This document shows, in pieces, positions 11,130 to 56,366 of a DNA stretch of 64,000 bases. This DNA is from Candidatus Enterousia sp. GTDB taxonomy: Bacteria; Pseudomonadota; Alphaproteobacteria; Rs-D84. How positions within the stretch are numbered: the first letter of the stretch is position 1; each line of letters starts with the position of its first letter. Under the pieces are notes generated by a model, which was not told the DNA's origin, did not search any database, and saw only the letters and a list, made by a program, of their open reading frames with translations. The DNA is taken from contig JAZLBV010000011.1 of the NCBI GenBank assembly GCA_045613925.1, positions 4,069-68,068 of the forward strand. The letters run 5' to 3'. Position numbers and translations under genes: made by a program.

Positions 11130-11690
11130 ATGGATAATAAAGAAAAATTTGTAAAATACGAAAAATTATTAAAACAATGGTCTGAAAAAATGAACCTTGT
11201 CGCACCAAGCACTTTGGTCGACATTCAGCACAGACATTTTGACGACAGCGCCCAATTGGCCGATTTTATCCCAAAAAACGCAAAAATTATCGATTTAGGA
11301 AGCGGTGCAGGTTTTCCGGGTGTAGTTCTGGCAATTTTGGGTTGGAACGTCATTTGTATCGAATCAATTTCAAAAAAGGCCGGCTTTTTATCAATTTTGA
11401 AGCAAGAATTAGATTTACCAAACCTGACTATTATTAACGATAGAATAGAAAATTTTTTTGCGAAAAGGCCGGTAAATGCCGGGGATTTTATATTGACCGC
11501 ACGGGCATTTGCACCGTTGATAAAGATTTTTGATTATACACACCGAACAAATTTCCGGCTTTTTTTGCTAAAAGGCCGGGAAATCAAAACCGAAATTGCG
11601 ACTGCAAAAAAGAAATATAAATTCGATTATGAATTACACCCATCAAAAACTGGCGACGGTTTTATTATTTGCGTAAAAAACTTAAAATAA
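11130..11690 (+). CDS. rsmG: 16S rRNA m7G527 methyltransferase RsmG (GidB)
   Basis: W..KMNLVA, RHF.DS.QL, IDLGSGAGFPG, TARAFAPL; precedes parAB. Confidence 0.92.
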   Translation: MDNKEKFVKYEKLLKQWSEKMNLVAPSTLVDIQHRHFDDSAQLADFIPKNAKIIDLGSGAGFPGVVLAILGWNVICIESISKKAGFLSILKQELDLPNLTIINDRIENFFAKRPVNAGDFILTARAFAPLIKIFDYTHRTNFRLFLLKGREIKTEIATAKKKYKFDYELHPSKTGDGFIICVKNLK

Positions 11691-11808
11691 AAACATTATT
11701 TCATATGAAACAAAATACAACTTTTTGTTTTTAGTGTATTTTTATTTTATATTGACTATTTTTCTTTTATTTTATATTCTTGGTTTTGAAAGATTAAGGA
11801 AACAAAAA

Positions 11809-12588
11809 ATGGCAAAAATAATATCTTTTGCAAATCAAAAAGGCGGTGTAGGAAAAACAACAACAGCCATAAACATTGCAGCATCGTTGGCTGCTATAAA
11901 AAAACGTGTCTTGTTGATAGACTTGGATTCACAGGGAAATGCTGGTACTGGATTGGGTTTTGTTCGCGCTTCACACAAACAAAGTATTTACGGTGTATTG
12001 ATGGGAAATGCCGGTATTATTGAAAATATTTTAACCACAGCAATACCAAACATGCATATTTTACCGGCATCTGCAAAATTAGCCGGCGCAGAATTAGATA
12101 TGCTTGATATGGAACAACGCGAATACCGCCTGCGCGATGCTTTAAAAACAGTAGATAACAACTATGATTATATATTGATTGATTGCCCACCTGCCCTGGG
12201 AATTTTAACAATAAATGCACTTAGTGCATCAGATTACGTTATTATACCATTACAGTGTGAATTTTTCGCCCTGGAAGGTGTTCAACAATTACTATCAACT
12301 ATTACGGCCATACAACAAAAATGGAATTCAAAACTTGAAATTTTGGGTATGGTATTGACCATGTATGATAAGAAACTAGGCCTTACACGCGCAGTAGAAG
12401 AAGACGTCCGAAATACGTTTGGCAACAAAGTTTTCAAGACGGTTATTCCACGAAATGTACGCATTTCAGAAGCCCCCAGCCATGGTAAACCCGCCCTATT
12501 CTATGATTTCAAATCATCGGGCGCCCAGGCATATTTACGTGTCGCAACTGAAGTTGTTAACGCATTGGAACAAAAGGATATAAAATGA
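11809..12588 (+). CDS. parA: Chromosome partitioning ATPase ParA/Soj
   Basis: ANQKGGVGKTTT deviant Walker A, DLDSQGNA, DCPPALG, RNVRISEAPSHG; AAGGA RBS before ATG 11809. Confidence 0.95.
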   Translation: MAKIISFANQKGGVGKTTTAINIAASLAAIKKRVLLIDLDSQGNAGTGLGFVRASHKQSIYGVLMGNAGIIENILTTAIPNMHILPASAKLAGAELDMLDMEQREYRLRDALKTVDNNYDYILIDCPPALGILTINALSASDYVIIPLQCEFFALEGVQQLLSTITAIQQKWNSKLEILGMVLTMYDKKLGLTRAVEEDVRNTFGNKVFKTVIPRNVRISEAPSHGKPALFYDFKSSGAQAYLRVATEVVNALEQKDIK

Positions 12589-13460
12589 CATCTAAATTTT
12601 TGGGAAAATCTCTTGCACAATTAAATCAAGAAATGGGGCAAATACCGGATATTTCTGTATTAACTGGGGGTGAACGCGTGGTTGTAAAACCTATTCCATT
12701 GGTACAAATTAGCCCAAACCCTGATCAACCACGAAAAACTTTTTCAGAAGCAGAATTGCGGGATTTATCAGAATCTATACGTGAAAAAGGCGTATTGGTT
12801 CCAATTATATTGCGAACCGTTCAAAACAAACCATATGTTTATGAAATTGTCGCGGGCGAACGTCGATATCGTGCAGCACAAATGGCCGGATTAAGCGAAA
12901 TTCCGGCATTGGTAAAGACTATGACAAATCAAAACGCAATGGAAATTGCATTAATTGAAAACGTACAACGTGAAAACCTGAACCCAATAGAAGAGGCCGA
13001 AGGTTATAAAAACCTGATGGAAAAGTGCGGATACACTATTGCAGATGTATCAAAATTAATTGGAAAATCTGAAAGCTATATTCGCAACCTTACACGCATA
13101 GTTTCATTGCCTGAATCTGTCAAAGAATTGGTAAAAAGCGGTGAATTGTCGGCATCACACGCACGTACAATCGCAGTATCAGATAATCCAGAACAGCTTG
13201 CACACGATATTATAAATAATAAACTATCTGTTGCAGATGCACAAAAATGTGTAAAAGATACCAATCGTTCAAAACGTTGCCGGTCTTTCGTTAAAACAAC
13301 ATTAAACAAAGAATATGTTGAAAAAATCGAATCAAAATTGCAAAAAACTTTAAAAACACCGGTAAAATTGCGTGAAAAACGGGGTGGGGCTGGCGAAATT
13401 ATTATTTCATTCGGCAGTCGTATCCAAATGGAAGATTTAATTGAAAAACTAACAAAATAG
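12585..13460 (+). CDS. parB: Chromosome partitioning protein ParB/Spo0J
   Basis: NPDQPRKTF, GERRYRAA CTP-binding motif, IENVQRENLNPIEEA, HTH. Confidence 0.95.
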   Translation: MTSKFLGKSLAQLNQEMGQIPDISVLTGGERVVVKPIPLVQISPNPDQPRKTFSEAELRDLSESIREKGVLVPIILRTVQNKPYVYEIVAGERRYRAAQMAGLSEIPALVKTMTNQNAMEIALIENVQRENLNPIEEAEGYKNLMEKCGYTIADVSKLIGKSESYIRNLTRIVSLPESVKELVKSGELSASHARTIAVSDNPEQLAHDIINNKLSVADAQKCVKDTNRSKRCRSFVKTTLNKEYVEKIESKLQKTLKTPVKLREKRGGAGEIIISFGSRIQMEDLIEKLTK

Positions 13461-13473
13461 GATGAAAATAAAA

Positions 13474-13507
13474 ATAAAAAAATACCGGCAAATGCCGGTA
13501 TTTTTTT
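13474..13507. terminator. Bidirectional terminator parB/pal
   Basis: AAAAAAATACCGGC-AAAT-GCCGGTATTTTTTT. Confidence 0.85.
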
Positions 13508-13519
13508 ATTTTTCAACAA

Positions 13520-13936
13520 TTATTTAACTGTTGTTGTTGCATTACGATTGTATTTCCAAACATCTTCGCCAGTACCTTTGACCAATGGACGTTCTTTACC
13601 ATAAGAAATAGTGGAAATACGACGTGCATCTATACCATCATTAACCATAACTTTCTTTGCAGCGTTTGCACGACGTGCACCCAAAGCCAAGTTGTATTCT
13701 GTGGAACCACGTTCGTCGCAATTACCAGCAATTTGGATTTTTGTATCTTCGTGGTTTTTCATATACAAAGATTGGCCCAACAAGTTATCGCGTGCTTCGT
13801 CTGAAATTTCAGCAGAGTTGAAAGCAAAGAAAACACGTTGATCGTTCAAATCAGTTGGTTCAACAATACTGGAACAGCCGCAACCAGCCAACAGTCCAGC
13901 AACACCAGCCAATAAAGCAAAATTTTTTATTTTCAT
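13520..13936 (-). CDS. pal: Peptidoglycan-associated lipoprotein Pal (OmpA-like)
   Basis: Lipobox LLAGC, GNCDERGSTEYNLALGARRA, ISYGKERP. Confidence 0.9.
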   Translation of the reverse strand: MKIKNFALLAGVAGLLAGCGCSSIVEPTDLNDQRVFFAFNSAEISDEARDNLLGQSLYMKNHEDTKIQIAGNCDERGSTEYNLALGARRANAAKKVMVNDGIDARRISTISYGKERPLVKGTGEDVWKYNRNATTTVK

Positions 13937-14011
13937 GAAAATACTCCCTTGAGTTTTTGTTGCTCAGCGTTTATTGTATACTAATGAATAAAAAAAATCA
14001 AGGACAAAACG

Positions 14012-14746
14012 ATGTGGTATGATGCTTTACAAGATTTACATATGGCAGGAGTTAGGTGGGAATTATCTGAAAACACAAAAAATGTAGTAAAAAACGCGCC
14101 ACGAAATACATCAGTCCAAAACACACCATCAAAACCGGTTATTGTTCCAGCATCTGCCCCCATTACATTAGAGATTGCAAAATCTATGGCAACACGCCCG
14201 AATGATATAGAATCTCTTGTTCGTATGATTTTGGAATTTAACCACCCACTGCGTATTGGTGCAACAAATGTTGTTATACCAAACATAGCAACATCTGCAA
14301 ATGGTTTGGTTATTATTACAGACATGCCCAGTACTGATGATGATTTATCTGGGAAAATTTTGTCTGGGGCCGCAGGTGAAATGATGGATAAAATGTTGTC
14401 CGCTATTGAAATGGGTCGCGATAGTGTTTCTATTGTGCCTTTGGTTTTTTGGCGCACCCCCGGGGGAAGAAGCCCTACACGCGAAGAATTAGATTTGATT
14501 CGTCCGTTTATTGATAAAATGTTAGAAATGTTAAACCCAAAAATCGTTATAACGCTTGGAACATTGGCTTCAACCGAAATAGGGCAGATAAATTTAACCT
14601 CTAATCACGGCGCCCAAATCCAAAGCGACAAAGGTTTCACTATTATCCCTATGTATCATCCGAATTATTTGATTTTAAAACCTAGTGCCAAGCGGGATGT
14701 TTGGACTGTATTGCAAAATGTGCAAAAGATGTTGAAAAACCCTTAA
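14012..14746 (+). CDS. Uracil-DNA glycosylase family 4-like
   Basis: GAAGEMMDKML, VFWRTPGGRSPT.EE...RPF, LGTLA, MYHPNYL. Confidence 0.8.
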   Translation: MWYDALQDLHMAGVRWELSENTKNVVKNAPRNTSVQNTPSKPVIVPASAPITLEIAKSMATRPNDIESLVRMILEFNHPLRIGATNVVIPNIATSANGLVIITDMPSTDDDLSGKILSGAAGEMMDKMLSAIEMGRDSVSIVPLVFWRTPGGRSPTREELDLIRPFIDKMLEMLNPKIVITLGTLASTEIGQINLTSNHGAQIQSDKGFTIIPMYHPNYLILKPSAKRDVWTVLQNVQKMLKNP

Positions 14747-14788
14747 AAATATTTAATAATCCATAGGTATTATTAAAGGAGCACAACG

Positions 14789-15334
14789 ATTAAACCAACA
14801 AATAATAACAAAGCCCGTGATATGGGCCCACGTGTGAACGATAAAATTTTTGCTAAAACTGTCCAGGTAATAAGCCAAGATGGACAAAATCTGGGTGTTA
14901 TGAATACGGCTGATGCAATTAATATGGCATATGACCAAGATATGGATTTGGTTGAAATAAATGCATCTGCAACGCCTGTGTTGGTAAAAATTATGGATTA
15001 TGGTAAATATAAATACGAACAAAAAAAACGTGCTAATGAAGCACGCAAAAAACAAAAAATTGTTGAATTAAAAGAAGTGTGGATAACACCTGTTATTGAA
15101 GAAAATGATTTAAACATCAAACTGAAAAAAGTGTTTGAATTTTTAGCACAGGGAAACAAAGTAAAAATCGCAGTTATGACACAGGGTGATAAACGTGTAT
15201 TGGCACGCAGTCGTGAAGCTGTTCCGCAATTATTTGCACGAATTATTGAATTAATTGGCGACAAAGGAACAATGGAATCCAAATCAAAACCTGAAGAAAG
15301 AACTAAATCGATTATTATTGCACCTGTGAAATAA
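14789..15334 (+). CDS. infC: Translation initiation factor IF-3 (probable ATT start)
   Basis: PRVNDKI, DLVEI, KIMDYGKYKYEQKK; AAAGGAG RBS 7 nt before an in-frame ATT at 14789. Confidence 0.92.
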   Translation: MKPTNNNKARDMGPRVNDKIFAKTVQVISQDGQNLGVMNTADAINMAYDQDMDLVEINASATPVLVKIMDYGKYKYEQKKRANEARKKQKIVELKEVWITPVIEENDLNIKLKKVFEFLAQGNKVKIAVMTQGDKRVLARSREAVPQLFARIIELIGDKGTMESKSKPEERTKSIIIAPVK

Positions 15335-15336
15335 AT

Positions 15337-15366
15337 AAAACGCCCAAAAACAGGGCGTTTTTTATT
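15337..15366 (+). terminator. Terminator after infC
   Basis: AAAACGCCC-AAAAACA-GGGCGTTTTTT. Confidence 0.7.
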
Positions 15367-15444
15367 AAAGAAATAATTGTTTATTTGTTGCAAACAAATC
15401 TTTTATGCGGTATCTTGCAATCGATGAACCAAAGGAAATATATT

Positions 15445-15648: not shown

Positions 15649-18163
15649 TATGGTCAAACAAAATAAACTTTCACCTGTTATGCAACAATACGTTGATATG
15701 AAATCTGAAAATCCAGATGCATTGTTGATGTTTCGTCTGGGCGATTTTTATGAGGCTTTTTTTGAAGATGCAAAAACAGTTAGTGAAACGCTTAGTTTGG
15801 TTTTGACACATCGTGGCACAGATGGTTTTGGCGAAAATGTACCTATGTGCGGGATTCCTTGGCATGCTGCAGATAATTATTTTGGTCGCTTGGTTCGTGC
15901 AGGATTCAAGGTTGCACTGGTTGAACAAATGGAAACCCCACAGCAAGCCAAGCAACGTGGACATAAGTTTATAGAAAGAAAAGTTGTTCGTGTTTTAACC
16001 GCTGGGACCATAACTGATGAAAATTTATTGGCACCAAAAATTTCTAATTTTTTAATTTCACTGGTGCCTGTATCTGTATCAAAATTTGATATTGCGGGCT
16101 GCGATATTTCAACCGGGGAAATTTTTATTGGTCAAACAGATTCTGTGTTTGACGATATGATTCGCATAAATCCTGCAGAAATAATTTACCCAGAACAAAG
16201 CGCAGAAAATACCATTATAAAGAATTTGCGTGGCATTTATAAAACCACACCTGTGTATGAAAAATTGTATGTTCGTTCAGACATAAATTTAATTGTATCA
16301 CACGTGTTTGGCGGAAATGTTAAATCTGATAATACAGAAAATATTTCTGCAATAAAATTATTAGCAGGTTATTTATTTAACACACAACGCGGGGCAAATA
16401 TATCTTTTCGGACACCATATGATTTTAAATCTGGACGGCAATTATTAATAGATTCTGCAACCTGGAAAAGTTTGGAAATAGATTCGCCTATAAACGATGG
16501 TGGCGCGTGTTTATTAGATGTTTTGGATAAAACTATAACAGCATCAGGCGCGCGAAAAATGCGTTCTTATTTGCGCACATTACCCGGGGATAAAGATGTT
16601 ATTTTATCACGCCAAGACCATATTGGACATTTATTATTAAACCATCCTTTGATGACAGAAATATCCGGTATTTTGTCGCGCACCCCAGATGTAAATCGCG
16701 CAATTTCACGATTGATGTCTGGACGTGGAACGCCACGCGATTTAAAAAACGTTTCTGAATTTTTAATGGTACTGGATGCGATAAAGGGTATCGGAACAAA
16801 GCTTGATTCTGATTTATCTGATAAATTTGTAAACATAAATACACATAACAATATTGCCAACGAATTAATGTTGGCGTTAAACGATGAATTGCCAAGTTTT
16901 TTCAGGGACGGCAATATTATTAAGCCCGGTTTTAATGTCGCACTTGATAATATGCGCAACTTGTCCAACGGTGCAATGGGGACGATTGCTGAATTACAGG
17001 CAAAATATATATCCCAAACAAACATAAATACTCTAAAAATCAAATTTAACAACATTTTGGGGTATTTTATAGAGGTTCCATCCACACGTGCTGATATGCT
17101 GATGGCACCAGAATCTGGTTTCATACATCGTCAAACTATGGCGGGAAACATGCGTTTTACAACACCGCAATTGATTGATTTAGATAACGATATACGCAGT
17201 GCATCTGAAAAGGCTGCCGCCATAGAAGCTGAAATTGTAGACAACATAATTGAAAAAATTCGTGATATATCTAATGATTTGATGAATACCGCAGATTTAA
17301 TTGCAGATTTAGATGTTTGGTTGGCACTGGCAACGTGCGCAGATTTATATTCTTGGGTGCGCCCAGAAATAACAAATGATACAGAATTTGAGATAATTGG
17401 TGGTCGTCATCCGGTAATAGAATATGTTCTGCGCGGGCGGGGTGATAACTTTGTCAAAAACGATTGTAATTTAAATGATAAATCTGTCGCATTATTAACA
17501 GGACCAAATATGGCGGGTAAATCCACATATTTACGTCAGAATGCAATTTTGGTTATTCTGGCACATTTGGGTTCTTTTGTTCCGGCTACGCGTGCCACAA
17601 TTGGGATTTGCGATCAATTATTCAGTCGAGTAGGGGCATCAGATAATTTGGCGGCAGGACAATCTACGTTTATGGTTGAAATGGTCGAAACGGCGAACAT
17701 ATTAAATCGTGCAACAAAAAAATCTTTTATAATATTTGATGAAATAGGGCGCGGTACATCAACTTTTGATGGTATGGCGATAGCTCAGGCTATTTTGGAG
17801 CACGTCAATAATCTGGGGCCACGAACTTTGTTTGCCACGCATTATCATGAATTGACCGGGTTAATAGATGATGAAAATTTAACAAATGTGTCGTGTTTGA
17901 CTATTGATGTTCGTGAACATAATAATGACATAGTATTTTTACATAAAATTATACCAGGGGTGGCGAATCGCTCATACGGAATAGCGGTTGCTAAGATGGC
18001 AGGAATGCCAAATGCTATTGTTGACCGTGCTGAACAGATTTTGGGAACATTGGAATCTAATTCACCAAATTCAACTCAAAAGACAATAGTGGATGTTAAA
18101 CCATCTGTGAAACCTGTGGTTGAAGAAAAAAAGAATAATTCGCAATTGTCTTTGTTTGGTTAA
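15641..18163 (+). CDS. mutS: DNA mismatch repair protein MutS
   Basis: SPVMQQY, FRLGDFYEAF, TGPNMAGKSTY, DEIGRGTSTFDG, FATHYHEL. Confidence 0.97.
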   Translation: MNNMVKQNKLSPVMQQYVDMKSENPDALLMFRLGDFYEAFFEDAKTVSETLSLVLTHRGTDGFGENVPMCGIPWHAADNYFGRLVRAGFKVALVEQMETPQQAKQRGHKFIERKVVRVLTAGTITDENLLAPKISNFLISLVPVSVSKFDIAGCDISTGEIFIGQTDSVFDDMIRINPAEIIYPEQSAENTIIKNLRGIYKTTPVYEKLYVRSDINLIVSHVFGGNVKSDNTENISAIKLLAGYLFNTQRGANISFRTPYDFKSGRQLLIDSATWKSLEIDSPINDGGACLLDVLDKTITASGARKMRSYLRTLPGDKDVILSRQDHIGHLLLNHPLMTEISGILSRTPDVNRAISRLMSGRGTPRDLKNVSEFLMVLDAIKGIGTKLDSDLSDKFVNINTHNNIANELMLALNDELPSFFRDGNIIKPGFNVALDNMRNLSNGAMGTIAELQAKYISQTNINTLKIKFNNILGYFIEVPSTRADMLMAPESGFIHRQTMAGNMRFTTPQLIDLDNDIRSASEKAAAIEAEIVDNIIEKIRDISNDLMNTADLIADLDVWLALATCADLYSWVRPEITNDTEFEIIGGRHPVIEYVLRGRGDNFVKNDCNLNDKSVALLTGPNMAGKSTYLRQNAILVILAHLGSFVPATRATIGICDQLFSRVGASDNLAAGQSTFMVEMVETANILNRATKKSFIIFDEIGRGTSTFDGMAIAQAILEHVNNLGPRTLFATHYHELTGLIDDENLTNVSCLTIDVREHNNDIVFLHKIIPGVANRSYGIAVAKMAGMPNAIVDRAEQILGTLESNSPNSTQKTIVDVKPSVKPVVEEKKNNSQLSLFG

Positions 18164-18167: not shown

Positions 18168-19037
18168 ATGGATGGAATTATTGTCTTAGATAAAGATTCT
18201 GGGGTGTTCAGCAGAACCGCAGGCTTTCGCATTGCAAAAATGTTTGGTGAAAAAAAATTTGGTCATATCGGAACACTGGACCCGATGGCCAGTGGTGTTT
18301 TGCCCATTGCCATTGGAAACGCAACCAAGATGATTCCTTTCATCGAAGAAATTTGCCCAAACCAAAAAGAATATTTATTCGGTTTGCGGTTTGGAATTGA
18401 AACTGATTCTTTGGATATTACCGGCAAAATCATCAAAAAGACCGGGAAAATACCAACTGATGACGATATAAAATTAGCCGTTGAAAATATACGTAAAACA
18501 ACTGAACAGGTGCCACCGGCTTTTTCTGCGATTCACATAAACGGGAAAAGGGCATATGAATTGGCACGCCAGGGCGAAACAACAGATTTACCCGCACGTC
18601 CGATAAAAATATACGAATTAGAATATACCGGTAAAAATGACGAAGAATACAATTTTCGCGTTCTTTGTTCACGTGGAACGTATGTTCGCGCTATTGTTCG
18701 CGATATTGCAACATTTTGTGGCACAATTGCAACCACTACATACATACGGCGAACGCTTTCCAATGGATTTTTGATAAAAAATGCGGTAAAACTTGATTTT
18801 TTAGAAAATCTGGTTAATAATAACGGGGCCAAGGAAGAATATTTGATGGCACCAGATTGTGCACTGGGGGACATTCCGGTAATCAATTTGGGTAATGAAG
18901 ATGCCAAATTATATAAAAATGGCGGATTCATAAAAACTGATGAAACGAACGGTTTGCGACGTGTTTATTGCGGTAAAAAATTTATCGGCATAGGGCGCAT
19001 AGAAAACGGTTTAATTCATCCAAAAAGAACTATGTAA
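18168..19037 (+). CDS. truB: tRNA pseudouridine-55 synthase TruB
   Basis: GHIGTLDPMASG, QVPPAFSAIHINGKRAYELAR, CSRGTYVR. Confidence 0.93.
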   Translation: MDGIIVLDKDSGVFSRTAGFRIAKMFGEKKFGHIGTLDPMASGVLPIAIGNATKMIPFIEEICPNQKEYLFGLRFGIETDSLDITGKIIKKTGKIPTDDDIKLAVENIRKTTEQVPPAFSAIHINGKRAYELARQGETTDLPARPIKIYELEYTGKNDEEYNFRVLCSRGTYVRAIVRDIATFCGTIATTTYIRRTLSNGFLIKNAVKLDFLENLVNNNGAKEEYLMAPDCALGDIPVINLGNEDAKLYKNGGFIKTDETNGLRRVYCGKKFIGIGRIENGLIHPKRTM

Positions 19038-22634: not shown

Positions 22635-23813
22635 CTACATCCTTGGTCTGCCGCCGCCAAGCGTGCTTTTGTTTGTAGAAACCTGACCTGAAAAACCAAC
22701 AACCAATTTATCGTTTTCTTTGATTTCATCCGATATTAATTGTGTTTCAGTCGGGGTGGTTAATCCTTTGGTATATGGAACAAAAATTATATCATTATCG
22801 CGCTTTATGGCCAGATGCGTTTGAGGGGTAATATTATCAGGCACTTGGTCAACCAATGTTTTATATGAACGAATCAAAAGCCCGGCATTTTTTGTTTTCC
22901 ACGCATTTTTAGCGTCTGCAATTAACACCGTAACAAATGCTGTCATTCCAGGCATTAATCGCAAATCGGAATTATCAACATTTATGACAACAGTATAAAC
23001 AACTACATTTGATACGGTTGTTGGAGACAATCTTATTTGATGAACGTTGCCTTTAAATGTTTGATTTGGATACGCATCAACAGTAAAGCTGACTGGTTGT
23101 CCTTCTTTAATCATACCAATATCTGCCTCTGATACGGCGGTTTCAATCTGCATTTTCGATAAATCTTCAGCTATTTCAAAAAGATCAGGTGTTTGGAAAG
23201 ATGCAGCCACAGTTTGACCTTTGTCTACTTTGCGTGAAATAACGGTTCCATCTACGGGTGAAGTAATTGTTGCATACCCAAGATTTGTAACGGCACGGTC
23301 ATATGAATATTGCGCTTTGTTAACTGCTTGTTTTGCTTGTTCGTGAATATTTTGAGATTTTTCCATTTCCGCGCGCGATATAAAACCGTCTGCGTATAAC
23401 AATTGATTTCGTTTATATTCAGATTCGGCGTATGCTAATTCTGATTTTGCAGAATCAAGTGATGCTTTGGCTTCGTCCACAGATGATTTCAGCACAGATG
23501 GTTCTATGGTTAATAAAATATCACCTTTGTTCACGTGCGAATTGTAATCTACAAAAATGTCTTCTATGGTGCCAGAAACCTGAGAGCCAACATTTACAGT
23601 ATTTACCGGTTGAATTTCACCAGTTGCTGTTACAGTCTGTGTTATATCTCCACGTGTTATATCAACTGTTATATAGTTTTTCTTTTTGTTTACACGTGTC
23701 GCAAGCACCCACCAAATTATTCCGCTGATAATAATGATGGATAATAAAATCCACCATTTCTTGTTCCAAACACGTCGCCAAAACGAAGTTTTTTTAATTT
23801 CCGCTTCCGTCAT
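22635..23813 (-). CDS. MacA-like periplasmic adaptor (membrane fusion protein)
   Basis: N-terminal TM, VGSQVSG, ITSPVDGTVI, V.GQTVAASFQTPDLF, VSEADIG. Confidence 0.9.
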   Translation of the reverse strand: MTEAEIKKTSFWRRVWNKKWWILLSIIIISGIIWWVLATRVNKKKNYITVDITRGDITQTVTATGEIQPVNTVNVGSQVSGTIEDIFVDYNSHVNKGDILLTIEPSVLKSSVDEAKASLDSAKSELAYAESEYKRNQLLYADGFISRAEMEKSQNIHEQAKQAVNKAQYSYDRAVTNLGYATITSPVDGTVISRKVDKGQTVAASFQTPDLFEIAEDLSKMQIETAVSEADIGMIKEGQPVSFTVDAYPNQTFKGNVHQIRLSPTTVSNVVVYTVVINVDNSDLRLMPGMTAFVTVLIADAKNAWKTKNAGLLIRSYKTLVDQVPDNITPQTHLAIKRDNDIIFVPYTKGLTTPTETQLISDEIKENDKLVVGFSGQVSTNKSTLGGGRPRM

Positions 23814-26886: not shown

Positions 26887-26945
26887 AAAATACCGGCATC
26901 CGCTTCCGCTTTGCTACAGCGAGATTAGACGCCGGTGTTTTTATT
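26887..26945. terminator. Bidirectional terminator sspB/accC with an enlarged loop
   Basis: AAAATACCGGC ... GCCGGTGTTTTT closing a ~33-nt GC-rich loop. Confidence 0.65.
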
Positions 26946-30573: not shown

Positions 30574-30590
30574 TACATTGAAATTTCTAG

Positions 30591-30618
30591 AAAAGGCCGG
30601 TAAATACCGGCCTTTTTT
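30591..30618 (+). terminator. Terminator after mreB
   Basis: AAAAGGCCGGTA-AA-TACCGGCCTTTTTT. Confidence 0.85.
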
Positions 30619-30657
30619 ATTAGTTTTTTTAAAAAATAAGTTTTTAAGTGTTTTTAT

Positions 30658-35473: not shown

Positions 35474-36028
35474 ATGAAACCACAAGAATTTAAAATACTA
35501 AAGACTAAAAATTTAAAATTAAAACCACTGGTTGCAACATTCAAATTTGCAAATGAATTATTTGATATTATTGATACTAACCGGGATTTTTTCAAATATA
35601 TGCCCTGGGCAGATGTAGAAAAACCAGAACAGGAATTTGTTTATTTACGCGATTCAGAAAAGGGCTGGAAAAATAATACCAAGGCCAATTATGGTTTATT
35701 TCTGCACGATAGTGAAGATTTTGTTGGCGTTTGTGGGATGTTCAACATAAATTGGGAAAACGAAAGTGGTGAAATCGGGTATTGGATGAATCCAAAATAC
35801 GCAGGCAAAGGTTTTATGAGCGAAGCTGTTAATGCTATTTCTTCTGAATTCCTGAACATAGGGTTTAAACGTATTGTAATATTGGCAAATCCGGAAAACA
35901 TTGCTTCGTGTAAAGTCGCCGAAAAATGCGGTTTTGAACGCGAAGGTATTATGCGCAGTTATGATTTTTTGCCTGTTTTGAATAAACGCGAAGATATTGT
36001 GTTATACGCGAAAATAAACGAAAAATAG
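35474..36028 (+). CDS. GNAT acetyltransferase, RimJ/RimL family
   Basis: EIGYW.NPKYAGKGFMSEA, N.ASCKVAEKCGF..EG. Confidence 0.88.
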   Translation: MKPQEFKILKTKNLKLKPLVATFKFANELFDIIDTNRDFFKYMPWADVEKPEQEFVYLRDSEKGWKNNTKANYGLFLHDSEDFVGVCGMFNINWENESGEIGYWMNPKYAGKGFMSEAVNAISSEFLNIGFKRIVILANPENIASCKVAEKCGFEREGIMRSYDFLPVLNKREDIVLYAKINEK

Positions 36029-37681
36029 ATGCAAGAATTTGATGTTATTGTTATTGGTGGTGGACACGCGGGTGTTGAAGCAGCAACCGCATCTGCGCGA
36101 CGTGGGGCAAAAACACTGTTATTAACAATGCGTGAAAGTGATATAGGTGCAATGTCGTGTAATCCATCTATTGGTGGGCCCGGAAAATCGCAAATGGTTG
36201 CCGAAATGGCCGCATTTGGGGGTGTTATGCCGTGTGCGGCGGATTCTGCAGGAATTCATTGGCGAACATTGAATGCAACGCACGGGGCGGCAACCCAGGC
36301 TTTGCGTGCACAGATTGATAGAAATTTTTATCATAATGCGGTAATGAAAATTTTAGAAAACACCGGTAATTTGACGGTAATTTTTGAAAAAGTCATCGAT
36401 TTAGATATTGAAAAAAAATCTGTTAATAAAAAATATACTGCAAAATCGTTGGTGTTAACAACCGGGACTTTTCTGTGGGGGCTTGTCACGCGCGGAAATG
36501 AAAAAATTGAATCTGGGCGTTTAATGGACGATGGAAAATATCAAGAAAATGATACGGTGATATCAAAAATTCTTAAAAAGGCCGGCTTTGAACTGTTGCG
36601 GTTAAAGACGGGAACACCTGCACGAATTTATCGCGATAGTATTGATTTTAGGGTTTGTGAAGAACAACCCGGTGATTTTCCACACGATTGGTTTGGTGTG
36701 GGGGACGATAAAAACACATATAATGACAAATGTTTCATCACGCATACGAATGAAAAAACACATGAAATTATTCGGGAAAATATAAAAAACGCACCTATGT
36801 ATAACGGCGATATCAGGGGGCTGGGTCCGCGTTATTGTCCGTCTTTGGAAGATAAAGTAATGCGTTTTCCAGAACACACTTCACACCACGTGTTCTTAGA
36901 ACCCGAAGGTTTCAACAGCGATTTAATTTATCCAAACGGTATATCAACCAGTTTTGGTTCGGATATTCAAGATATTTGGATACGGACTATTCCTGGGTTA
37001 GAAAACGCCCGCATAGCGCGATATGGATACGCGATTGAATATGATGCAATTGATGCACGAAAATTAAAAACTACACTGGAATCAAAAGATATACCAGGGC
37101 TTTTTTTTGCGGGACAAATCAATGGAACATCTGGATACGAAGAAGCTGCAGCCCAAGGTCTGGTTGCTGGGGCAAATGCCGCTGCGTATGCATTAAATGT
37201 TGCACCATTGGTTTTAGATAGAACAAATTCTATGATTGGTGTTTTGATTGATGATATAACAACATTGGGGGTTGACGAACCATATCGTATGTTCACCTCT
37301 CGGGCAGAATACAGATTAAACCTGCGCGCAGATAATGCAATATTCAGATTGGGCTATACGGCACAATCTCTGGGATTGATAGATTCAGAAACATTTGAAA
37401 AAATAAAAAACATACGTGAAAAAGTTACCATAGAAAATGACAAATTTTATGCAGGTTATATATCACGTAATGAACGCGAAATTGAAAACTATAAAAAAGA
37501 TGCCGAATTAAAAATCCCACACGATTTTGATTATAAATCTATGCCGGGTTTAACAAACGAATTGGTTGAAAAATTAACAAAAACACGTCCTGAAAATATC
37601 GCCGCTTTATCACGAATTCCGGGTATGACACCGGCTGGAATTATTGTTGTTTTACGCAAAATAAAATGTGGAAATAAATAA
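36029..37681 (+). CDS. mnmG: tRNA uridine-5-carboxymethylaminomethyl modification enzyme MnmG (GidA)
   Basis: [67 protein letters not shown]. Confidence 0.95.
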
Positions 37682-45428: not shown

Positions 45429-45441
45429 AATATGCCCCCTT

Positions 45442-45645
45442 TTATTTCAATCCGTATGGAGCCAAGATTTTCGCCTGACCCATCATATTTTCGTTTAAAT
45501 ACTGTGGCTTTGTCCCAGCGTTATTTGCACGCTTTGATTTATGCGACAGACATTTATGGTGAGCATTTCTAGCAACGCGAACCTTTCCGGTTGCAGTCAT
45601 AGAAGCACGTTTTTTTAAATAAGATTTTGTTTTTAATTTTGGCAT
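45442..45645 (-). CDS. rpmI: 50S ribosomal protein L35
   Basis: MPKLKTK...KR..T.TGKV; upstream of rplT. Confidence 0.9.
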
Positions 45646-45736
45646 TTTTAATCCTTTTTTTTATAATCCTCGTGGCAATGCCTGCCATTTCGGTTGCTGT
45701 TATTCTGACACATAAAAAAGAAAAATCAAGTTTTTA

Positions 45737-45772: not shown

Positions 45773-46594
45773 ATGACCAAGGACAAATTATCTTATAAAT
45801 TAACAAAAATTATAAAATCTGTATTAGCGGCACTGGCGGTGCCTGTTTTTGTTATTTATATCATTGTCGCAAAGCCTGATTATACCATTATGAACGGGTT
45901 GGCGTATGTTGTATTACCCGTGGCAAATTGGGTTGGTGATATTATAACCTGGCCGGTGCGCGTTGTTGGTCAGGGTGTAGATTGGGTACGCGAAACAGCA
46001 AAAATACGGTCTGAAAACGAAGAATTAAGGAAGAAATTGGATACAGCATTGGCAAATAAATATGCCTGTGATATCGCGATGGCGGAAAATCAAAAGCTTG
46101 AAAATGAAATAGGCGTAAAAAATGCATCGCCATACAAAACAGTTGTTGCAGATGTGCAATTTAATGATTCTGTATTTCATCATAATACATTTTTAATAAA
46201 TCGTGGAAAAAAAGATGGTTTGGCTCGCGGGATGGTGGTTGTTTCTTTTGATAATCGATTAATTGGAATGATTGTTGATTGTGGCTCTGAATTTTGCCGT
46301 GTACGTGGTCTGTGTGATGCAGATTCTAATATTGCTGTGCGTGTTGCAGGCAGTGATATTTCCGGGTTTTTACAGGGAAATGGAAAAACGCGTGCTTCTA
46401 TTGGCTTTTTCAGCGATCCACAATTTGTGGCAAGGCCCGGATTAAAGATTATAACAAGTAATATAAGTGGGATTTTGCCATCTGGTGTGTATATAGGCGA
46501 TATGATTAATGAAACCTATGTTGATGTTTTACCGGCAAATAAGTATTCACGGGTTTTGGTTTTGAAATATAACGGTTCGGGTTCGTATAATTGA
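45773..46594 (+). CDS. mreC: Rod shape-determining protein MreC
   Basis: N-terminal TM, coiled coil (ENEELR..L), INRGKKDG...GM.V, L.G; upstream of mreD/mrdA. Confidence 0.85.
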   Translation: MTKDKLSYKLTKIIKSVLAALAVPVFVIYIIVAKPDYTIMNGLAYVVLPVANWVGDIITWPVRVVGQGVDWVRETAKIRSENEELRKKLDTALANKYACDIAMAENQKLENEIGVKNASPYKTVVADVQFNDSVFHHNTFLINRGKKDGLARGMVVVSFDNRLIGMIVDCGSEFCRVRGLCDADSNIAVRVAGSDISGFLQGNGKTRASIGFFSDPQFVARPGLKIITSNISGILPSGVYIGDMINETYVDVLPANKYSRVLVLKYNGSGSYN

Positions 46595-49950: not shown

Positions 49951-49953
49951 AAA

Positions 49954-52200: not shown

Positions 52201-53820
52201 TTGTCAAAATTTGATAATTCCTTTACCGATGAATTAAGACAACGCTTGTCGATTGTAGACGTTGTTTCTCGCCGTATACCGCTTGTTAAACGTGGTCAAA
52301 ATTATTGGGGTTGTTGCCCGTTTCATAATGAAAAAACACCTTCGTTTGCGGTATCAGAAGATAAAGGTTTTTATCATTGTTTTGGTTGTGGTGAACACGG
52401 TGATATTATTTCATTTGTTATGAAATCTGAAAATGTTGATTTTAAAACAGCTATATCTGAATTGGCAGATATGGCGGGTGTAAAAATGCCAGAGATAAAA
52501 CAAAAATCGCAACAACAAATTGAAAATGAAGAACATTATATAAAAATCACTGATGCGGCAGCAAAAATTTATCAAGATTTGTTATATGGTGAATCTGGAA
52601 AAATTGCTTTGGATTATATAAAACGGCGCGGATTTAGCGATGAAATGATAAAAAAATATCGTATAGGTTATGCGCCCAAAAACAATACTATTTCAGCAAA
52701 ATTTTCAAATATAAACCAAGATAAACTTATTGCCACAGGGCTTGTCCGTCTTGGAAATTACGGTCCATATGATTTTTTTCGTGATAAATTGATGTTTCCT
52801 ATATTTAATGCACATAATCAAATTGTTGCTTTTTCTGGACGTTCTTTGGACGGTAGTGAGCCAAAATATATAAATACTGCTGATACAGAATTATTTCATA
52901 AACGTCAAACTATATTTGGTTTTAATTTCGCACGCGATGCAATACATCGTCAAAATCGCAGTATTGTTGTAGAGGGTCAAATTGATGCTATACAAATGCA
53001 AAATCATGGATTCCCAGAAACTGTTGCACCACTTGGTACCGCTTTGACAGAAGATCATATTGCAATGCTTTGTAAATCAAATCGAAATATTGTGTTTTGT
53101 TTTGACGGTGATAATGCAGGACAAAAAGCCGCTATACGGGCTGCTATGCTGGTTTTGCCGTTTTTACGTGAAACAAGCGATGTTAAATTTGCTTTTGTTA
53201 GTGGTGGTAAAGATCCAGATGAAATATTAAAAACAGCTGGTGAATCTGCTATGCACAAAATCATAGATAACGCAGAACCTTTGGTTGATTTCTTATGGGA
53301 TGTTGTAAATAAAAATTATCTGGTTAATACACCTGGTGGACGTACACAGGCTGAAAAATATCTGAAAGATTGTGTATCAAAAATTCAAGATAAAATATTT
53401 CAAAATGAAATTGAACAAGAGTATAACAATCGCAAATTTAATCAATGGCATAAATGGAAACAACAAAAATATACACCAATCATTGAAATGCCTGATACAG
53501 ATGTGATGACTATAAATATTATAAAATCTATTGTTCAAACATATCCTACAATTTCTGAAAAATATGTTGATTTCCTGGCATCACTTGGTATTTCGTTCGA
53601 TGAAAATGCGCAAAAAACGGATTTAAGTTCAGATGCTGCTGAAAAATTCATAGTTTCTTTTAAATTGCAAAAATATCTAAAAAAATTAGAGGATGAAAAA
53701 CAACAAATTTTATCAAATGCATTGAAAAACAATATTGATTGTTCAGAAAACCTGGCTGAAATTAATAATAAAATAAATCAAGCCAGGGAAAAATTAGAAC
53801 TTTTGTTGGATATAAAATAA
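52201..53820 (+). CDS. dnaG: DNA primase (TTG start)
   Basis: CHC2 CPFHNEKTPSF..CFGC, FRDKLMFPI, PKYIN, VEGQID, FDGD.AG..A, KDPD. Confidence 0.95.
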   Translation: MSKFDNSFTDELRQRLSIVDVVSRRIPLVKRGQNYWGCCPFHNEKTPSFAVSEDKGFYHCFGCGEHGDIISFVMKSENVDFKTAISELADMAGVKMPEIKQKSQQQIENEEHYIKITDAAAKIYQDLLYGESGKIALDYIKRRGFSDEMIKKYRIGYAPKNNTISAKFSNINQDKLIATGLVRLGNYGPYDFFRDKLMFPIFNAHNQIVAFSGRSLDGSEPKYINTADTELFHKRQTIFGFNFARDAIHRQNRSIVVEGQIDAIQMQNHGFPETVAPLGTALTEDHIAMLCKSNRNIVFCFDGDNAGQKAAIRAAMLVLPFLRETSDVKFAFVSGGKDPDEILKTAGESAMHKIIDNAEPLVDFLWDVVNKNYLVNTPGGRTQAEKYLKDCVSKIQDKIFQNEIEQEYNNRKFNQWHKWKQQKYTPIIEMPDTDVMTINIIKSIVQTYPTISEKYVDFLASLGISFDENAQKTDLSSDAAEKFIVSFKLQKYLKKLEDEKQQILSNALKNNIDCSENLAEINNKINQAREKLELLLDIK

Positions 53821-53821
53821 A

Positions 53822-54385
53822 TCAAAGCGTATTTATATTTACCAATTTTTCTATGTTTTTTGCCACATTTTTTGATAAGTTTTTATGTTTTAATATACAA
53901 TATAGTGCAAATATAGCGACACCTATAAACACATATGTTTCTTCAGGTTGAATTAAATTATACACAAATTTACTATGACCCTGGATATACAAAGTTCCCA
54001 ACGCAAGCGCAAGCATAACATACGATGAATATTTCCCTGTCGCAAATAATATACGTGCCATTTCTGTATTTCTGGAAATCTTTTTCAAAACATTTATTTG
54101 TTTATCGTTCAGATTTTGGGTTAAACCTGTTTTTTCAGCGTTTTGAAAGGTGTTTAATCCATTACCTTTGTAATAAGACACAATTGAACAAGATGATAAT
54201 GCCAATTTTTGTAAGCAATTTATATATTCGCATTTTTCATCATTTGTTAATTCTTTATCACTTTTGATTTCAGTTGCAAGTTCATTAATATCACGGATTT
54301 GCGATAAAACATCTTCTGCAGACTGACCAATATCAGCATATTTTCCACAATTTCTTTTTGGAATTTTTCTTAAAATTTTTGCCAT
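53822..54385 (-). CDS. Hypothetical protein with two C-terminal TM helices
   Basis: 187 aa, AAGGG RBS; no recognised family. Confidence 0.6.
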   Translation of the reverse strand: MAKILRKIPKRNCGKYADIGQSAEDVLSQIRDINELATEIKSDKELTNDEKCEYINCLQKLALSSCSIVSYYKGNGLNTFQNAEKTGLTQNLNDKQINVLKKISRNTEMARILFATGKYSSYVMLALALGTLYIQGHSKFVYNLIQPEETYVFIGVAIFALYCILKHKNLSKNVAKNIEKLVNINTL

Positions 54386-54454
54386 TATTTTAACCCTTGG
54401 TATTTTTGTATAAATTTATCACATATTTTTATTTTGTCAAATTAAATATAAATC

Positions 54455-54506
54455 AAAAAATTACCGGCCTTTTTGAAATTTTTTATCGAAAAGGCCGGTA
54501 TTTTTT
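54455..54506 (-). terminator. Inverted repeat downstream of ychF
   Basis: TACCGGCCTTTT ... AAAAGGCCGGTA 12-bp arms flanked by A/T tracts. Confidence 0.65.
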
Positions 54507-54512
54507 AATATT

Positions 54513-55592
54513 TTAAACATTGAACAGGAAATGGCAAATATCACCTTCTTGCATAATATATTCTTTGCCAACAAGACGCATTTTGCCGGCTTCTTTAACT
54601 GCAACTTCACCACCGTATTGAATATAATCATTTGGTGATATAATTTCTGCACGTATAAACCCGCGTTCAAAATCAGTATGAATTTTGCCAGCTGCCTGTG
54701 GTGCGGTCATACCTTTGGTAATTGTCCAAGCATGCGCTTCTTTTGGTCCAACTGTATAAAATGTTTGAAGCCCCAATGTATCATATCCTGTATGTATAAC
54801 CTGGTCCAGACCAGATTGTGATAACCCCAGTTCATTCAAAAACATTTTTCGTTCATCTATATCGATAATCTGCGCAATCTCCATTTCTATCTTTGACGAT
54901 ATTATTAACACAGGTGCAGTCTTAGAAAATTTTTCACGAACCATATCGGAATATTTATTACCGGTGCTTGCAGCTGATTCTTCGACATTACATACATAAA
55001 TTACCGGTTTTTTTGTTAATAAATTAAATGGTGTTGCATCAACATCTTGGTCGCGGGCCGGTATAGATTGTTCAAGACCCTGTTTTATTTTGATTGCAGC
55101 ATCTAACAAGACGGCTGCATTTTTATCCTGTCCATGAACCTTTTTTTCAAGTTTTTTTATTTGATTATCCAAACTTTCTATATCAGCCAACATTAATTCT
55201 GTTTCTATGGTTTCTATATCAGATAATGGGTCTATGCGGCCGTTCACATGAACTATATCATCATTTTCAAAACAACGAACAACGTGAATTATTGCATCTG
55301 TTTCAAGAATATTTGATAAAAATTTATTACCAAGACCTTCACCGCTAGATGCACCTTTGACAAGGCCAGCTATATCAACAATTTCAAGTTGTGTTGGAAT
55401 AATACGATCTGCACCAGCAATAGATGCCAATTTCAAAAGTGTTTCATCAGGAACAACTACGCGGCCTGTATTTGGTTCAATAGTGCAAAACGGATAGTTT
55501 TGTGCATCCGCAGCAGCACTTTGTGTCAATGCATTAAATAAAGTAGATTTTCCAACATTTGGCAATCCAACTATACCACAATTAAATCCCAT
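54513..55592 (-). CDS. ychF: Redox-regulated ATPase YchF (Obg family)
   Basis: GIVGLPNVGKSTLFNALT, NYPFCTIEPN, DIAGLV.GAS.GEGLGN.FL, GKIHTDF.RGFIRAE. Confidence 0.96.
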   Translation of the reverse strand: MGFNCGIVGLPNVGKSTLFNALTQSAAADAQNYPFCTIEPNTGRVVVPDETLLKLASIAGADRIIPTQLEIVDIAGLVKGASSGEGLGNKFLSNILETDAIIHVVRCFENDDIVHVNGRIDPLSDIETIETELMLADIESLDNQIKKLEKKVHGQDKNAAVLLDAAIKIKQGLEQSIPARDQDVDATPFNLLTKKPVIYVCNVEESAASTGNKYSDMVREKFSKTAPVLIISSKIEMEIAQIIDIDERKMFLNELGLSQSGLDQVIHTGYDTLGLQTFYTVGPKEAHAWTITKGMTAPQAAGKIHTDFERGFIRAEIISPNDYIQYGGEVAVKEAGKMRLVGKEYIMQEGDICHFLFNV

Positions 55593-55667
55593 ATTTTTTC
55601 ACCAATTTTTTGTTTGTTTTTTATTTATTATATTTTATTATGAATATATATTAATTCAGGATTAAAT

Positions 55668-56366
55668 ATGTCATACCTTTGGCAAGAATTCAATATAAAA
55701 ACTTTCCCGGCGGAAACTTTGGTTTTTCGTGATGGTGTTTTTTATGATGATTTATCTGATTATGAAAATGGATATTTTGATTCTGAAAAAAATTTAATAA
55801 TTATAAATAAAACTCCAAAATTGCCGGTACATATTATATATATTGGTGAAATTGCCGGGAATTTTGATATAAATGTTGATTTATCTGCACAAAATACTAA
55901 TGTTTTTTTAACAGCAAAAATAATTAACAAAAAGCCGGCCTTTTTGAACATTTTTATCAAAAACACCGGAAAAAATAGTGTATTAAAAGGACAAATTATA
56001 GCACAAAATTATAATTTGCTGAAAATAGAAGAAAAAGCACAACATTTTTGCGAAAATACCGGTATTTTCTTAAAAAATCGCATTTTGGCACATAAAAATT
56101 CAGATACAGAATTAAATGGCTATGCGATTATAGATAAAAATTTACCAAATTGTGATTCTGATGTGTCTTTTTCTGTTATGGCTGATAAAGATGCAAAAAT
56201 AAAAATGAAGCCGACACAATATATAAAATCAGTTCCAAATTCTGCAAAACATTCAGCGTCTTTATATACCCCTACAGAAAATCAAATAAATTATTTACGT
56301 GAATCTGGACTTTCTGGGGTTGAAGTCAAAGATCTTTTACAAGAGGCGTTTTTAAGCCAAGAATAA
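55668..56366 (+). CDS. SufB/SufD-like beta-helix protein (short)
   Basis: C-terminal P....H.AS......QI.YL...G motif typical of SufBD; only 232 aa. Confidence 0.55.
   Translation: MSYLWQEFNIKTFPAETLVFRDGVFYDDLSDYENGYFDSEKNLIIINKTPKLPVHIIYIGEIAGNFDINVDLSAQNTNVFLTAKIINKKPAFLNIFIKNTGKNSVLKGQIIAQNYNLLKIEEKAQHFCENTGIFLKNRILAHKNSDTELNGYAIIDKNLPNCDSDVSFSVMADKDAKIKMKPTQYIKSVPNSAKHSASLYTPTENQINYLRESGLSGVEVKDLLQEAFLSQE

Follow-up and report, generated by a model that had tools for sequence, protein, structure and literature searches.

The window analyzed here is a 64,000-nucleotide stretch (contig C11, positions 4069-68068) of the 19-contig, 870-kb, 95%-complete genome G000, which belongs to a gut alphaproteobacterium of the Candidatus Enterousia group. 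Scattered along most of it are short palindromes and half-palindromes with the consensus A4-N2-CCGG-N2-T4 (AAAA-NN-CCGG-NN-TTTT). The full 16-mer pattern is AAAANNCCGGNNTTTT, and the half-site, counted on both strands, is AAAANNCCGG. The genes that carry or flank these sites include rsmG (GidB match, 1.4e-37), parA, parB, a membrane-fusion gene of the HlyD/MacA type, ychF and a gene for a 232-amino-acid protein with a weak SufBD-core match (5.9e-8; sufD-like below), the open frame of which is conserved in relatives. These assignments uphold those of the original prediction, which took the palindromes for possible sites of the divergent ParB encoded in the window and named an uptake-sequence-like motif and by-products of terminators as alternatives.

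A regional excess of CCGG palindromes

The window contains five exact matches to AAAANNCCGGNNTTTT, at 11374, 22876, 54489, 55929 and 56053, compared with a mean of 0.08 in 100 dinucleotide-preserving shuffles, of which 0/100 reached five. The original prediction had listed the same five positions, with an estimated expectation of less than 0.1, and the near matches that it reported (11463, 11549, 11570, 13479, 30591, 36576, 54458 and 54998) are likewise all present as described. Across the 870-kb genome, the exact 16-mer occurs six times, with 5/6 copies inside the window. The half-site is found 83 times. With 31 copies in the window and 52 in the remaining 806 kb, 37% of the half-sites fall within the 7.4% of the genome that the window represents, and all copies of the word AAAAGGCCGG (9/9) are inside the window. 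On contig C11, family sites span window positions 5860-56068; beyond ~56.1 kb, there are three half-sites in the next 92 kb. The two densest clusters, at 11.3-13.5 kb (rsmG-parAB) and at 54.4-56.1 kb (ychF and the sufD-like gene, beside a candidate replication origin, oriC), are those that had been noticed at first reading. Altogether, about 20-25 loci with the core RCCGGY lie in a stretch of ~45-50 kb that runs from rsmG-parAB to the candidate oriC and that we refer to as the domain. The sites occupy all three frames and both strands, and the three AAAAGGCCGG copies in rsmG lie in three different frames. The palindrome family is real, and its enrichment is stronger than first reported.

Chance, base composition or coding constraint (Lys-Lys-Pro-Ala-Phe-type peptides), compounded by post-hoc choice of the pattern, could produce an apparent excess of this kind. 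The pattern was picked after the window had been read, the peptides encoded at several sites are conserved (KGREI in RsmG and KKPAF in the sufD-like protein, for example), and amino-acid content lifts the shuffle expectation in the domain about 2.7-fold. We allowed for the choice of the pattern by scanning all 65,536 X4-NN-Y4 words for enrichment in the window over the remaining genome. Among these, AAAANNCCGG is the most window-enriched and an extreme outlier (binomial p 9e-15; runner-up 3e-7). Synonymous codons were then shuffled within each gene 100 times, with the protein and the codon usage of the gene preserved, which is the codon-preserving control that the original prediction had suggested. 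The excess is kept in the coding sequences of the domain, which hold 20 half-sites against 6.7±2.4 in the shuffles (maximum 14 in 100) and 4 full sites against 0.5, and is absent outside, where the other 766 genes hold 38 half-sites against 38.3±6.3; the count observed in the domain was reached in 0 of 100-200 such shuffles. Words with other cores (GGCC, GCGC or CGCG) or with the flanks reversed (TTTT..CCGG), used as controls, are not in excess in the domain. CCGGs in which at least 6/8 flanking A/T positions match make up 17.5% of the CCGGs in the domain versus 2.9% elsewhere, and outside the domain they do not cluster anywhere. Outside the domain, coding sequences contain ~13% fewer plain CCGGs than their synonymous shuffles (1047 vs 1204±25); inside, there is no such depletion (99 vs 83). 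The word scan, the synonymous shuffles, the control cores and the replication of the pattern in the closest relative, along with the spread of sites over all frames and both strands, effectively refute an origin by chance or coding constraint, to which we assign only a very remote probability. The signal acts at the DNA level, independent of amino-acid sequence and codon usage.

Two further causes of a regional bias were rejected. Codon usage, GC content at third codon positions and overall GC content are the same inside and outside the domain, and identity to relatives is similar as well, which speaks against horizontal transfer or a chimeric contig. A drive through CCGG methylation or very-short-patch repair was discarded given that neither this genome nor most of its congeners has a match to PF00145 (C5-methyltransferase).

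Table 1 Members of the CCGG family and associated features, in window coordinates
Position	Feature	Location	Remarks
5860-5885	terminator-like hairpin AAAATGCCGGGATAGCCGGCA	end of gene 5074-5859	leftmost family member
11374-11389	exact 16-mer AAAAGGCCGGCTTTTT	inside rsmG	codons AAA AAG GCC GGC TTT TTA; common to the closest relative (L001/G031), absent in G002, G007, G009 and L002
11463-11478	half-site AAAAGGCCGGTAAATG	rsmG, different reading frame from 11374	CCGG kept in all relatives; flank tracks the dialect of each lineage; 16-nt identity with the left arm of the 30591 terminator
11549-11585	site pair AAATTTCCGGCTTTTT and AAAAGGCCGGGAAATC, 21 bp apart	rsmG	13-bp hairpin, -17 kcal/mol, z -3.6; conserved across the genus
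11697-11712	parS-derived palindrome TATTTCATATGAAACA	between rsmG and the parA promoter	candidate ParB site; not a family member
12585-13460	parB	plus strand	ParB_N, HTH_ParB and ParB_C domains
13353-13368	half-site AAAACACCGGTAAAAT	inside parB	common to the closest relative alone
13479-13504	bidirectional terminator AAAATACCGGCAAATGCCGGTATTTT	3' of parB	-23.9 kcal/mol; genus-wide type, half-site on both arms
16659-16674	near site AAATATCCGGTATTTT	mutS, variable MutS segment	specific to this genome; inverted match to 19 nt of parB (12639-12658)
18436-18525	half-sites AAAAGACCGG at 18436 and CCGGCTTTTT at 18516	truB	
22876-22891	exact 16-mer AAAAGCCCGGCATTTT	HlyD/MacA-like membrane-fusion gene	specific to this genome; core CCTG or CCAG in relatives
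26887-26941	two half-sites	convergent intergenic gap sspB/accC	CCGG-stem terminator there in relatives
30591-30616	terminator AAAAGGCCGGTAAATACCGGCCTTTT	3' of mreB	-20.9 kcal/mol; stem moved to the GG dialect via changes on both arms
35575-36591	three half-sites, at 35575, 36357 and 36576	GNAT gene and mnmG	36576 site (AAAAGGCCGGCTTTGA, mnmG) arose by synonymous GCA->GCC and AAA->AAG vs relatives
46356-46371	half-site ATATTTCCGGGTTTTT	mreC	arose by synonymous TCT/TCA->TCC and GGT->GGG
54458-54504	site pair AAATTACCGGCCTTTT and exact AAAAGGCCGGTATTTT, 31 bp apart	gap downstream of ychF	on the minus strand, hairpin of -25.2 kcal/mol followed by a U-run (ychF terminator); similar pair with the same spacing in relatives
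54998-55013	near site AAATTACCGGTTTTTT	ychF	arose by synonymous CCT->CCG plus a Ser->Lys change
55929-55975	site A, exact AAAAAGCCGGCCTTTT, and half-site AAAACACCGG 31 bp downstream	sufD-like gene	
56053-56068	site B, perfect palindrome AAAATACCGGTATTTT	sufD-like gene	present in 4/8 species
56677-56819	candidate oriC, right boundary of the domain	311-bp gap rpmJ (-)/virB3 (+)	five TTTTCAACA boxes in both orientations

Relatives and terminators

The family was traced in 18 congeneric genomes and, outside the genus, in 12 genomes of the same order. The 19 genus genomes, this one included, contain 58 copies of the 16-mer versus 6 of the reversed control, an approximately tenfold difference, and the 12 genomes of other genera, with 8 versus 2, show no comparable excess. 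Within the genus, the hits concentrate at two homologous places, the 3' half of rsmG and the dnaG/ychF/sufD-like/rpmJ-virB3 region. The closest relative, G031 (JAZROV01; ParB 87% identical), carries 25 half-sites in its 52-kb rsmG-to-sufD-like interval, compared with 0.087/kb elsewhere, and 8/10 of its AAAAGGCCGG copies are in that interval. In the syntenic contigs of G002, G007 and G013 (75-78% nucleotide identity), the regional enrichment is 2-4-fold and the excess in coding sequences over synonymous shuffles is 2-fold. G013 is also a case of relocation: following a rearrangement, macAB-recF-accBC-mreB-metG-mnmG now lie some 30-55 kb beyond parAB and show background density, whereas the same genes hold 9 half-sites in G000. 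This hints that position rather than gene identity matters.

An old core of the family, namely, the four CCGGs in rsmG and site A of the sufD-like gene, is present in all compared species, and many other members are gains specific to this lineage, including the synonymous ones in mnmG, mreC and ychF (Table 1). At site A, the core Pro codon CCG is invariant in 8/8 species whereas other conserved Pro codons vary freely, and the CCGG is kept even in species where the hairpin partner has lost it. The two free positions of the motif follow lineage-specific dialects, with GG in G000 and G031, CA in G002 and G007 (less clearly in G009), and AG in G012. Site-bearing genes contain no indels, and the length shared between copies is usually 10-16 nt. 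Mobile palindromic repeats akin to repetitive extragenic palindromes or miniature inverted-repeat transposable elements were therefore rejected, most copies being located in coding sequences, with some 19-22-nt identities left unexplained.

A 19-nt exact inverted identity, CAAATACCGGATATTTCTG, connects a conserved stretch of parB (12639-12658) with a variable stretch of mutS (~16655-16673) 4 kb away. Relatives have unrelated sequence at the mutS position, where a templated multi-base replacement is possible. In the closest relative (L001), a 22-nt exact repeat, GCCAAATCGTTAAAAAGGCCGG, is present at 10904-10925 and 15922-15943, with one copy just 3' of parB and the other inside truB. The ychF 3' pair matches the sufD-like pair (site A and the half-site 31 bp downstream, A/A+31) at 45/64 positions.

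The CCGG stem is shared with the standard intrinsic terminator of the genus, AAAA-[CT]A-CCGGC-AAAT-GCCGG-T[GA]-TTTT, which more distant relatives use often and throughout the genome. In G002, G003, G007, G009 and G013, a near-identical 26-nt terminator, AAAA[CT]ACCGGCAAATGCCGGT[GA]TTTT, recurs many times in each genome like a repeat family (for example, G002:C5 16070, 34763 and 46876). Outside the origin domain of the present genome, the recurrent CCGG-stem terminator is largely replaced by other stems. In the window, the features of intrinsic terminators are found in the members at 13479, 30591 and 54458/54489 and probably in that at 5860. Strong folds, from -21 to -25 kcal/mol, are predicted for the first three (13470-13515, 30585-30622 and the 54458/54489 pair), and the intragenic pairs reach -17 kcal/mol in rsmG (11543-11591) and -10.6 kcal/mol (z -2.0) at A/A+31 of the sufD-like gene. 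The isolated 16-mers inside coding sequences (11374, 22876 and 56053) have folding energies of -0.2 to -3.4 kcal/mol, as weak as those of shuffles, and for this reason are not terminators. Thus, the suggestion that the palindromes are terminator by-products accounts for no more than 4-5 of about 22 loci, which are real terminators. Terminator density was also discarded as the cause of the enrichment since the number of terminators in the window is ordinary, most of them use other stems, and 4-5 loci is all that it would explain. A dnaX-type frameshift site was considered as well: rsmG has an A-AAA-AAG heptamer, but the other members have no common frame or spacing.

ParB, its probable site and the candidate origin

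The ParB of this genome is indeed divergent, as originally proposed. Its recognition helix, KSESYIRNLTR, has no Arg173, a new Arg at 177 and Ser201, and in an alignment with Caulobacter ParB (6T1F), R173/T179/A184/G201 are replaced by E/L/S/S; the residues that read the TTTC core (G170, K171, S172, N178 and R204) are kept. A new Arg or Lys at 177 and Ser at 201 are found genus-wide, and the genome encodes a single ParB-family protein. Canonical parS (at most one mismatch) is absent in 19/19 genomes of the genus and present in 9/12 genomes of other genera. Within the order, the co-variation of R173 with canonical parS is perfect: both are present in 7/7 aligned genomes with R173, and neither in the 22/22 genomes without it. 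In the latter, residue 173 is E, A, T, V or D (the 19 genus members), Q (two genomes) or L (one genome).

The genus has its own parS-derived palindrome, TATTTCAYATGAAAYA (TATTTCA[CT]ATGAAA[CT]A), which virtually all genus genomes carry upstream of parA, at a distance of less than 1 kb. Each genome has one copy or two, none farther than about 1 kb from parA, and the palindrome combines an unaltered TTTC core with A at both position 1 and position 6. In the window, the best parS-like sequences are sites distinct from the CCGG motif. In ParB, R173, which does not vary among parS-specific variants, reads the G at core position 1, Q173 favors an A there, R201 reads C at position 6, and G, S, T or C at 201 accompany parS-type sites (PMC7383237). 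By these rules, the residues of the present ParB fit the A-at-1, A-at-6 variant at 11697 rather than a CCGG core, and the G->A change at core position 1 in TATTTCAYATGAAAYA is the one expected given that Arg173 has been lost. The parS-derived palindrome at 11697 is probably the true ParB site.

The idea that the CCGG palindromes have become the places where the divergent ParB binds or loads, and as such a non-canonical centromere, has several points in its favor: canonical parS is missing from the whole genus, the only ParB of the genome lacks R173 and has a new Arg at 177, and the palindromes are 16 bp long, cluster at parAB and origin-ward, and share the central CCGG with the Noc site. Residue 173 is E in genomes with the GG dialect and V or T in those with the CA dialect, although these are few and phylogenetically confounded points. 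However, besides the conservation of TATTTCAYATGAAAYA next to parA across the genus, its position-1 change and the co-variation of R173 with canonical parS, the CCGG motif has A-tracts where parS has T-tracts (half-site AAAANNCC vs TGTTTCAC), a reversed polarity that would call for a wholly different interface, whereas ParB retains the residues in contact with the TTTC core. The Lys or Arg at 179/184 and the R201 that are needed for recognition of C6 in the Noc-binding site (NBS) are absent, and the motif is degenerate, with many half-sites. Given the reversed polarity and the missing residues, binding of ParB to the CCGG family, the central proposal of the original prediction, appears highly unlikely.

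In two genomes of a sister genus, G023 and G030 (L063 and L064), ParB has a Noc-like Gln at 173 and canonical parS is absent; a site of their own was not found within 1.5 kb of parB. The sequence TGTTTCACGTGAAG, present at window position 3569 and at C2:17295, matches canonical parS at 14/16 positions with one degenerate half, and these copies may be relics of an ancestral parS.

At the right boundary of the domain, the array of five TTTTCAACA boxes is the only such cluster in the genome, and the boxes are conserved in six relatives. In G002, G007 and G011, CCGG palindromes are located between the boxes; at the corresponding positions, G000 has the decayed forms CTGG and ACAG. In three genomes, the turn of the cumulative GC skew falls no more than about 10 kb from the box array, the exact skew minimum coinciding with the switch in gene orientation at rplT/rpmI-mreC, and dnaA is on another contig. 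The neighborhood (rnpA, recF, mnmG, rsmG, parAB, dnaG and topA) is typical of origin regions. An origin at the skew minimum itself, near 45.5 kb, was rejected inasmuch as the gap there holds the rpmI and rplT genes. The box-array gap is a plausible but provisional oriC, and the box cluster is a candidate for either oriC or an operator array. Clustering of the palindromes around the origin defined by GC skew, a check proposed at the outset, is borne out to the extent that the clusters adjoin parAB and the box array with its skew turn, but the assignment of the origin stays provisional. Two genes considered as an ArsR regulator and a metal ATPase (orf98 and orf803) actually encode VirB3 and VirB4. 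An 85-amino-acid open reading frame (ORF) that overlaps the box array (56569-56826) is probably spurious, being frameshifted in L005. Two small ribosomal protein genes fall under the usual ORF cut-off, one for a Cys-less, L36-like protein of 44 amino acids (rpmJ, 56414-56548, minus strand) and one for an L35-like protein (45429-45650, minus strand) upstream of rplT.

A possible array of protein-binding sites in the origin domain

A DNA-level signal that is confined to one region, is independent of protein sequence and codon usage, is present in relatives, and is distinct from the parS-derived site calls for an explanation of its own. The simplest functional reading, suggested by the regional character of the signal, the location of its oldest and densest parts beside parAB and the candidate origin, the synonymous gains and the drift of the consensus, is that the CCGG family may be an origin-domain array of binding sites for a protein other than ParB. 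We put this forward tentatively, as the likeliest of the readings considered, though one that is possible rather than probable. Under such a scheme, about 20-25 short palindromes and half-palindromes of the A4-N2-CCGG-N2-T4 type would be maintained or generated at the DNA level across the domain and would be recognized by a dimeric DNA-binding protein. This putative reader would mark or organize the origin domain, the sites forming a centromere-like or origin-anchoring array. Many weak sites would act collectively, the preferred flanking dinucleotide would drift between lineages, and a minority of copies (13479, 30591, 54458/54489 and 5860) would double as ordinary intrinsic terminators built on the same CCGG stem.

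The nearest precedent appears to be the RacA-ram system of Bacillus subtilis, in which the palindrome TGACGCCGGCGTCA, distinct from parS, occurs in 25 regions from -412 to +200 kb around oriC (PMC4914108). The two would have in common a few dozen short palindromes with a GCCGGC-type core that are origin-proximal, clustered, largely inside genes and separate from parS, co-existing with ParB-parS; here, about 22 loci with an RCCGGY core are found over ~50 kb that abut the provisional oriC. In contrast to ram, the flanks are A4/T4 instead of TGAC/GTCA, the domain is ten times smaller and one-sided, many members are half-sites, and the host is a non-sporulating alphaproteobacterium in which the array is known from sequence and its reader protein is putative. 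Arrays of parS (TGTTTCACGTGAAACA; Caulobacter, Myxococcus, Corynebacterium) likewise consist of 16-bp palindromes at parAB or near the origin, often inside genes, but their half-sites are unrelated to those of the CCGG family, the polarity of the A/T tracts is reversed, the motif described here is degenerate at 4/16 positions, and the genus has a parS derivative, TATTTCAYATGAAAYA, that matches its altered ParB. The Noc sites of Firmicutes (TATTTCCCGGGAAATA) are palindromes with a central CCGG, but have TTTC/GAAA flanks, are spread over the chromosome except for the terminus instead of occupying one region, and are read by a ParB paralogue with Q173/K179/K184/R201, where the single ParB found here has E/L/S/S. 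The DNA uptake sequences and uptake signal sequences of Neisseriaceae and Pasteurellaceae resemble the family in their occurrence in coding DNA in all frames, in the inverted pairs in terminators and in the lineage dialects. Unlike about 25 loci in 50 kb, however, they are distributed genome-wide in hundreds to thousands of copies. In this genome, a maximal-order Markov analysis found no 6-12-mer over-represented genome-wide, and there are just 83 half-sites, so the earlier suggestion of an uptake-sequence-like motif was rejected.

Several observations weigh against a protein-read array. Membership in the family brings a CCGG no added conservation overall (32% vs 28% for other CCGGs in three relatives), so most sites turn over and purifying selection is evident only for the old core in rsmG and the sufD-like gene. 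Site pairs that share at least 13 contiguous bases number 20, compared with 4.7 under a position-independent null (position weight matrix, PWM), and the 19-22-nt identities between unrelated places, two cases in all, hint at copying and not at independent selection. The strong domain contrast is confined to G000 and G031, the excess in distant relatives being milder, partly genome-wide and mostly terminator-borne. Many members are mere half-sites, and the spacing of the pairs varies (21 bp, 31 bp). The origin call rests on the box cluster and on a GC skew that is confounded with gene orientation. A search within the domain for a genus-specific regulator found none and yielded no candidate binding protein. 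Of the proteins that were considered, the 187-amino-acid product of orf187 (53822-54385, minus strand, between dnaG and ychF and next to the hot spot) has two predicted membrane helices and no family match, and was rejected also because the gene is absent from 7/7 syntenic relatives, in which dnaG abuts ychF. A genus-specific RacA-like MerR protein was dismissed as well: the single gene with a MerR-type helix-turn-helix is conserved across the whole order and hence uninformative.

The main competing explanation is non-functional and requires no binding protein: tracts of CCGG-stem terminators would be copied into nearby DNA through template switching or short-patch ectopic conversion, coding DNA included wherever the protein tolerates it, resulting in local homogenization. 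The many near-identical CCGG-stem terminators of the relatives are in line with this process, as are the rsmG site at 11463, which repeats 16 nt of the 30591 terminator and tracks the terminator dialect of each lineage, the inverted parB/mutS identity, the repeat shared by truB and the parB 3' flank in L001, the likeness of the ychF and sufD-like pairs, the long shared words above the PWM null and the turnover of most sites at a neutral rate. Nevertheless, no known mechanism copies 10-20-nt tracts over kilobases and yet stays within one 50-kb interval, and homogenization leaves unexplained why the densest and oldest clusters are at parAB and the candidate oriC and why the CCG codon of site A is invariant. 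The lack of indels in the site-carrying genes does not fit it either, and terminators are also present in the remainder of the genome, where the motif is not in excess. We consider it unlikely, if far from negligible.

A role in RNA or single-stranded DNA seems distinctly less credible and is, in our estimate, quite unlikely. Pairs of CCGG half-sites would then act as hairpins that terminate, attenuate or insulate transcription, for instance, between rsmG and parAB or after ychF, or that mark RNA processing, with the isolated 16-mers being decayed or nascent hairpin arms. The strong hairpins at 13470-13515, 30585-30622 and the ychF 3' end and those in rsmG (11543-11591) and at A/A+31 agree with such a role, and removal of one CCGG and the loop from the standard terminator gives exactly AAAANNCCGGNNTTTT. 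Indeed, the family and the genus terminators share the A-tract, the CCGG stem and the T-tract, so that collapse of the loop yields the 16-mer, but most family members are inside genes, have neither loop nor partner arm, and do not fold. For the majority of the sites, the isolated 16-mers and single half-sites, folding is no better than in shuffles. Furthermore, most sites are within essential genes, where termination would be harmful, site A retains its CCGG where the hairpin partner has lost it, there is no bias between sense and antisense (on the sense strand, AAAANNCCGG n=8 vs CCGGNNTTTT n=5), and the confinement to one region would be left unexplained.

To return to the reading as an array of sites for a protein other than ParB, a more specific version of it is that a second, ParB-independent centromere-like system might exist beside the rewired ParB-parS, filling the interval from parAB to oriC and read by a putative origin-domain protein. 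The array would be located largely in synonymous positions of housekeeping genes, and the specificity of the reader would drift, as the GG, CA and AG dialects might suggest. This version we regard as doubtful. The broader assignment of the family to origin-proximal centromere-like site arrays, akin in principle to RacA-ram or to parS in multi-copy arrays and with a putative function, we hold as a working classification, made from sequence and in the same tentative spirit as the array reading itself.

The organization of origin domains is poorly known outside a few model bacteria and, to our knowledge, no origin-proximal site arrays other than parS have been described in Alphaproteobacteria. 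The changes in ParB and parS amount to a natural experiment, in which the loss of Arg173 accompanies the G->A change at parS position 1 genus-wide, with perfect co-variation across the order, and which provides a direct test, in natural genomes, of the specificity rules that in vitro work established for ParB and Noc. If a protein does read the CCGG sites, they would represent a new chromosome-organizing or anchoring system in a lineage with tiny genomes that is probably dependent on a host or partner, and a clear case of regulatory information carried in synonymous codon positions.

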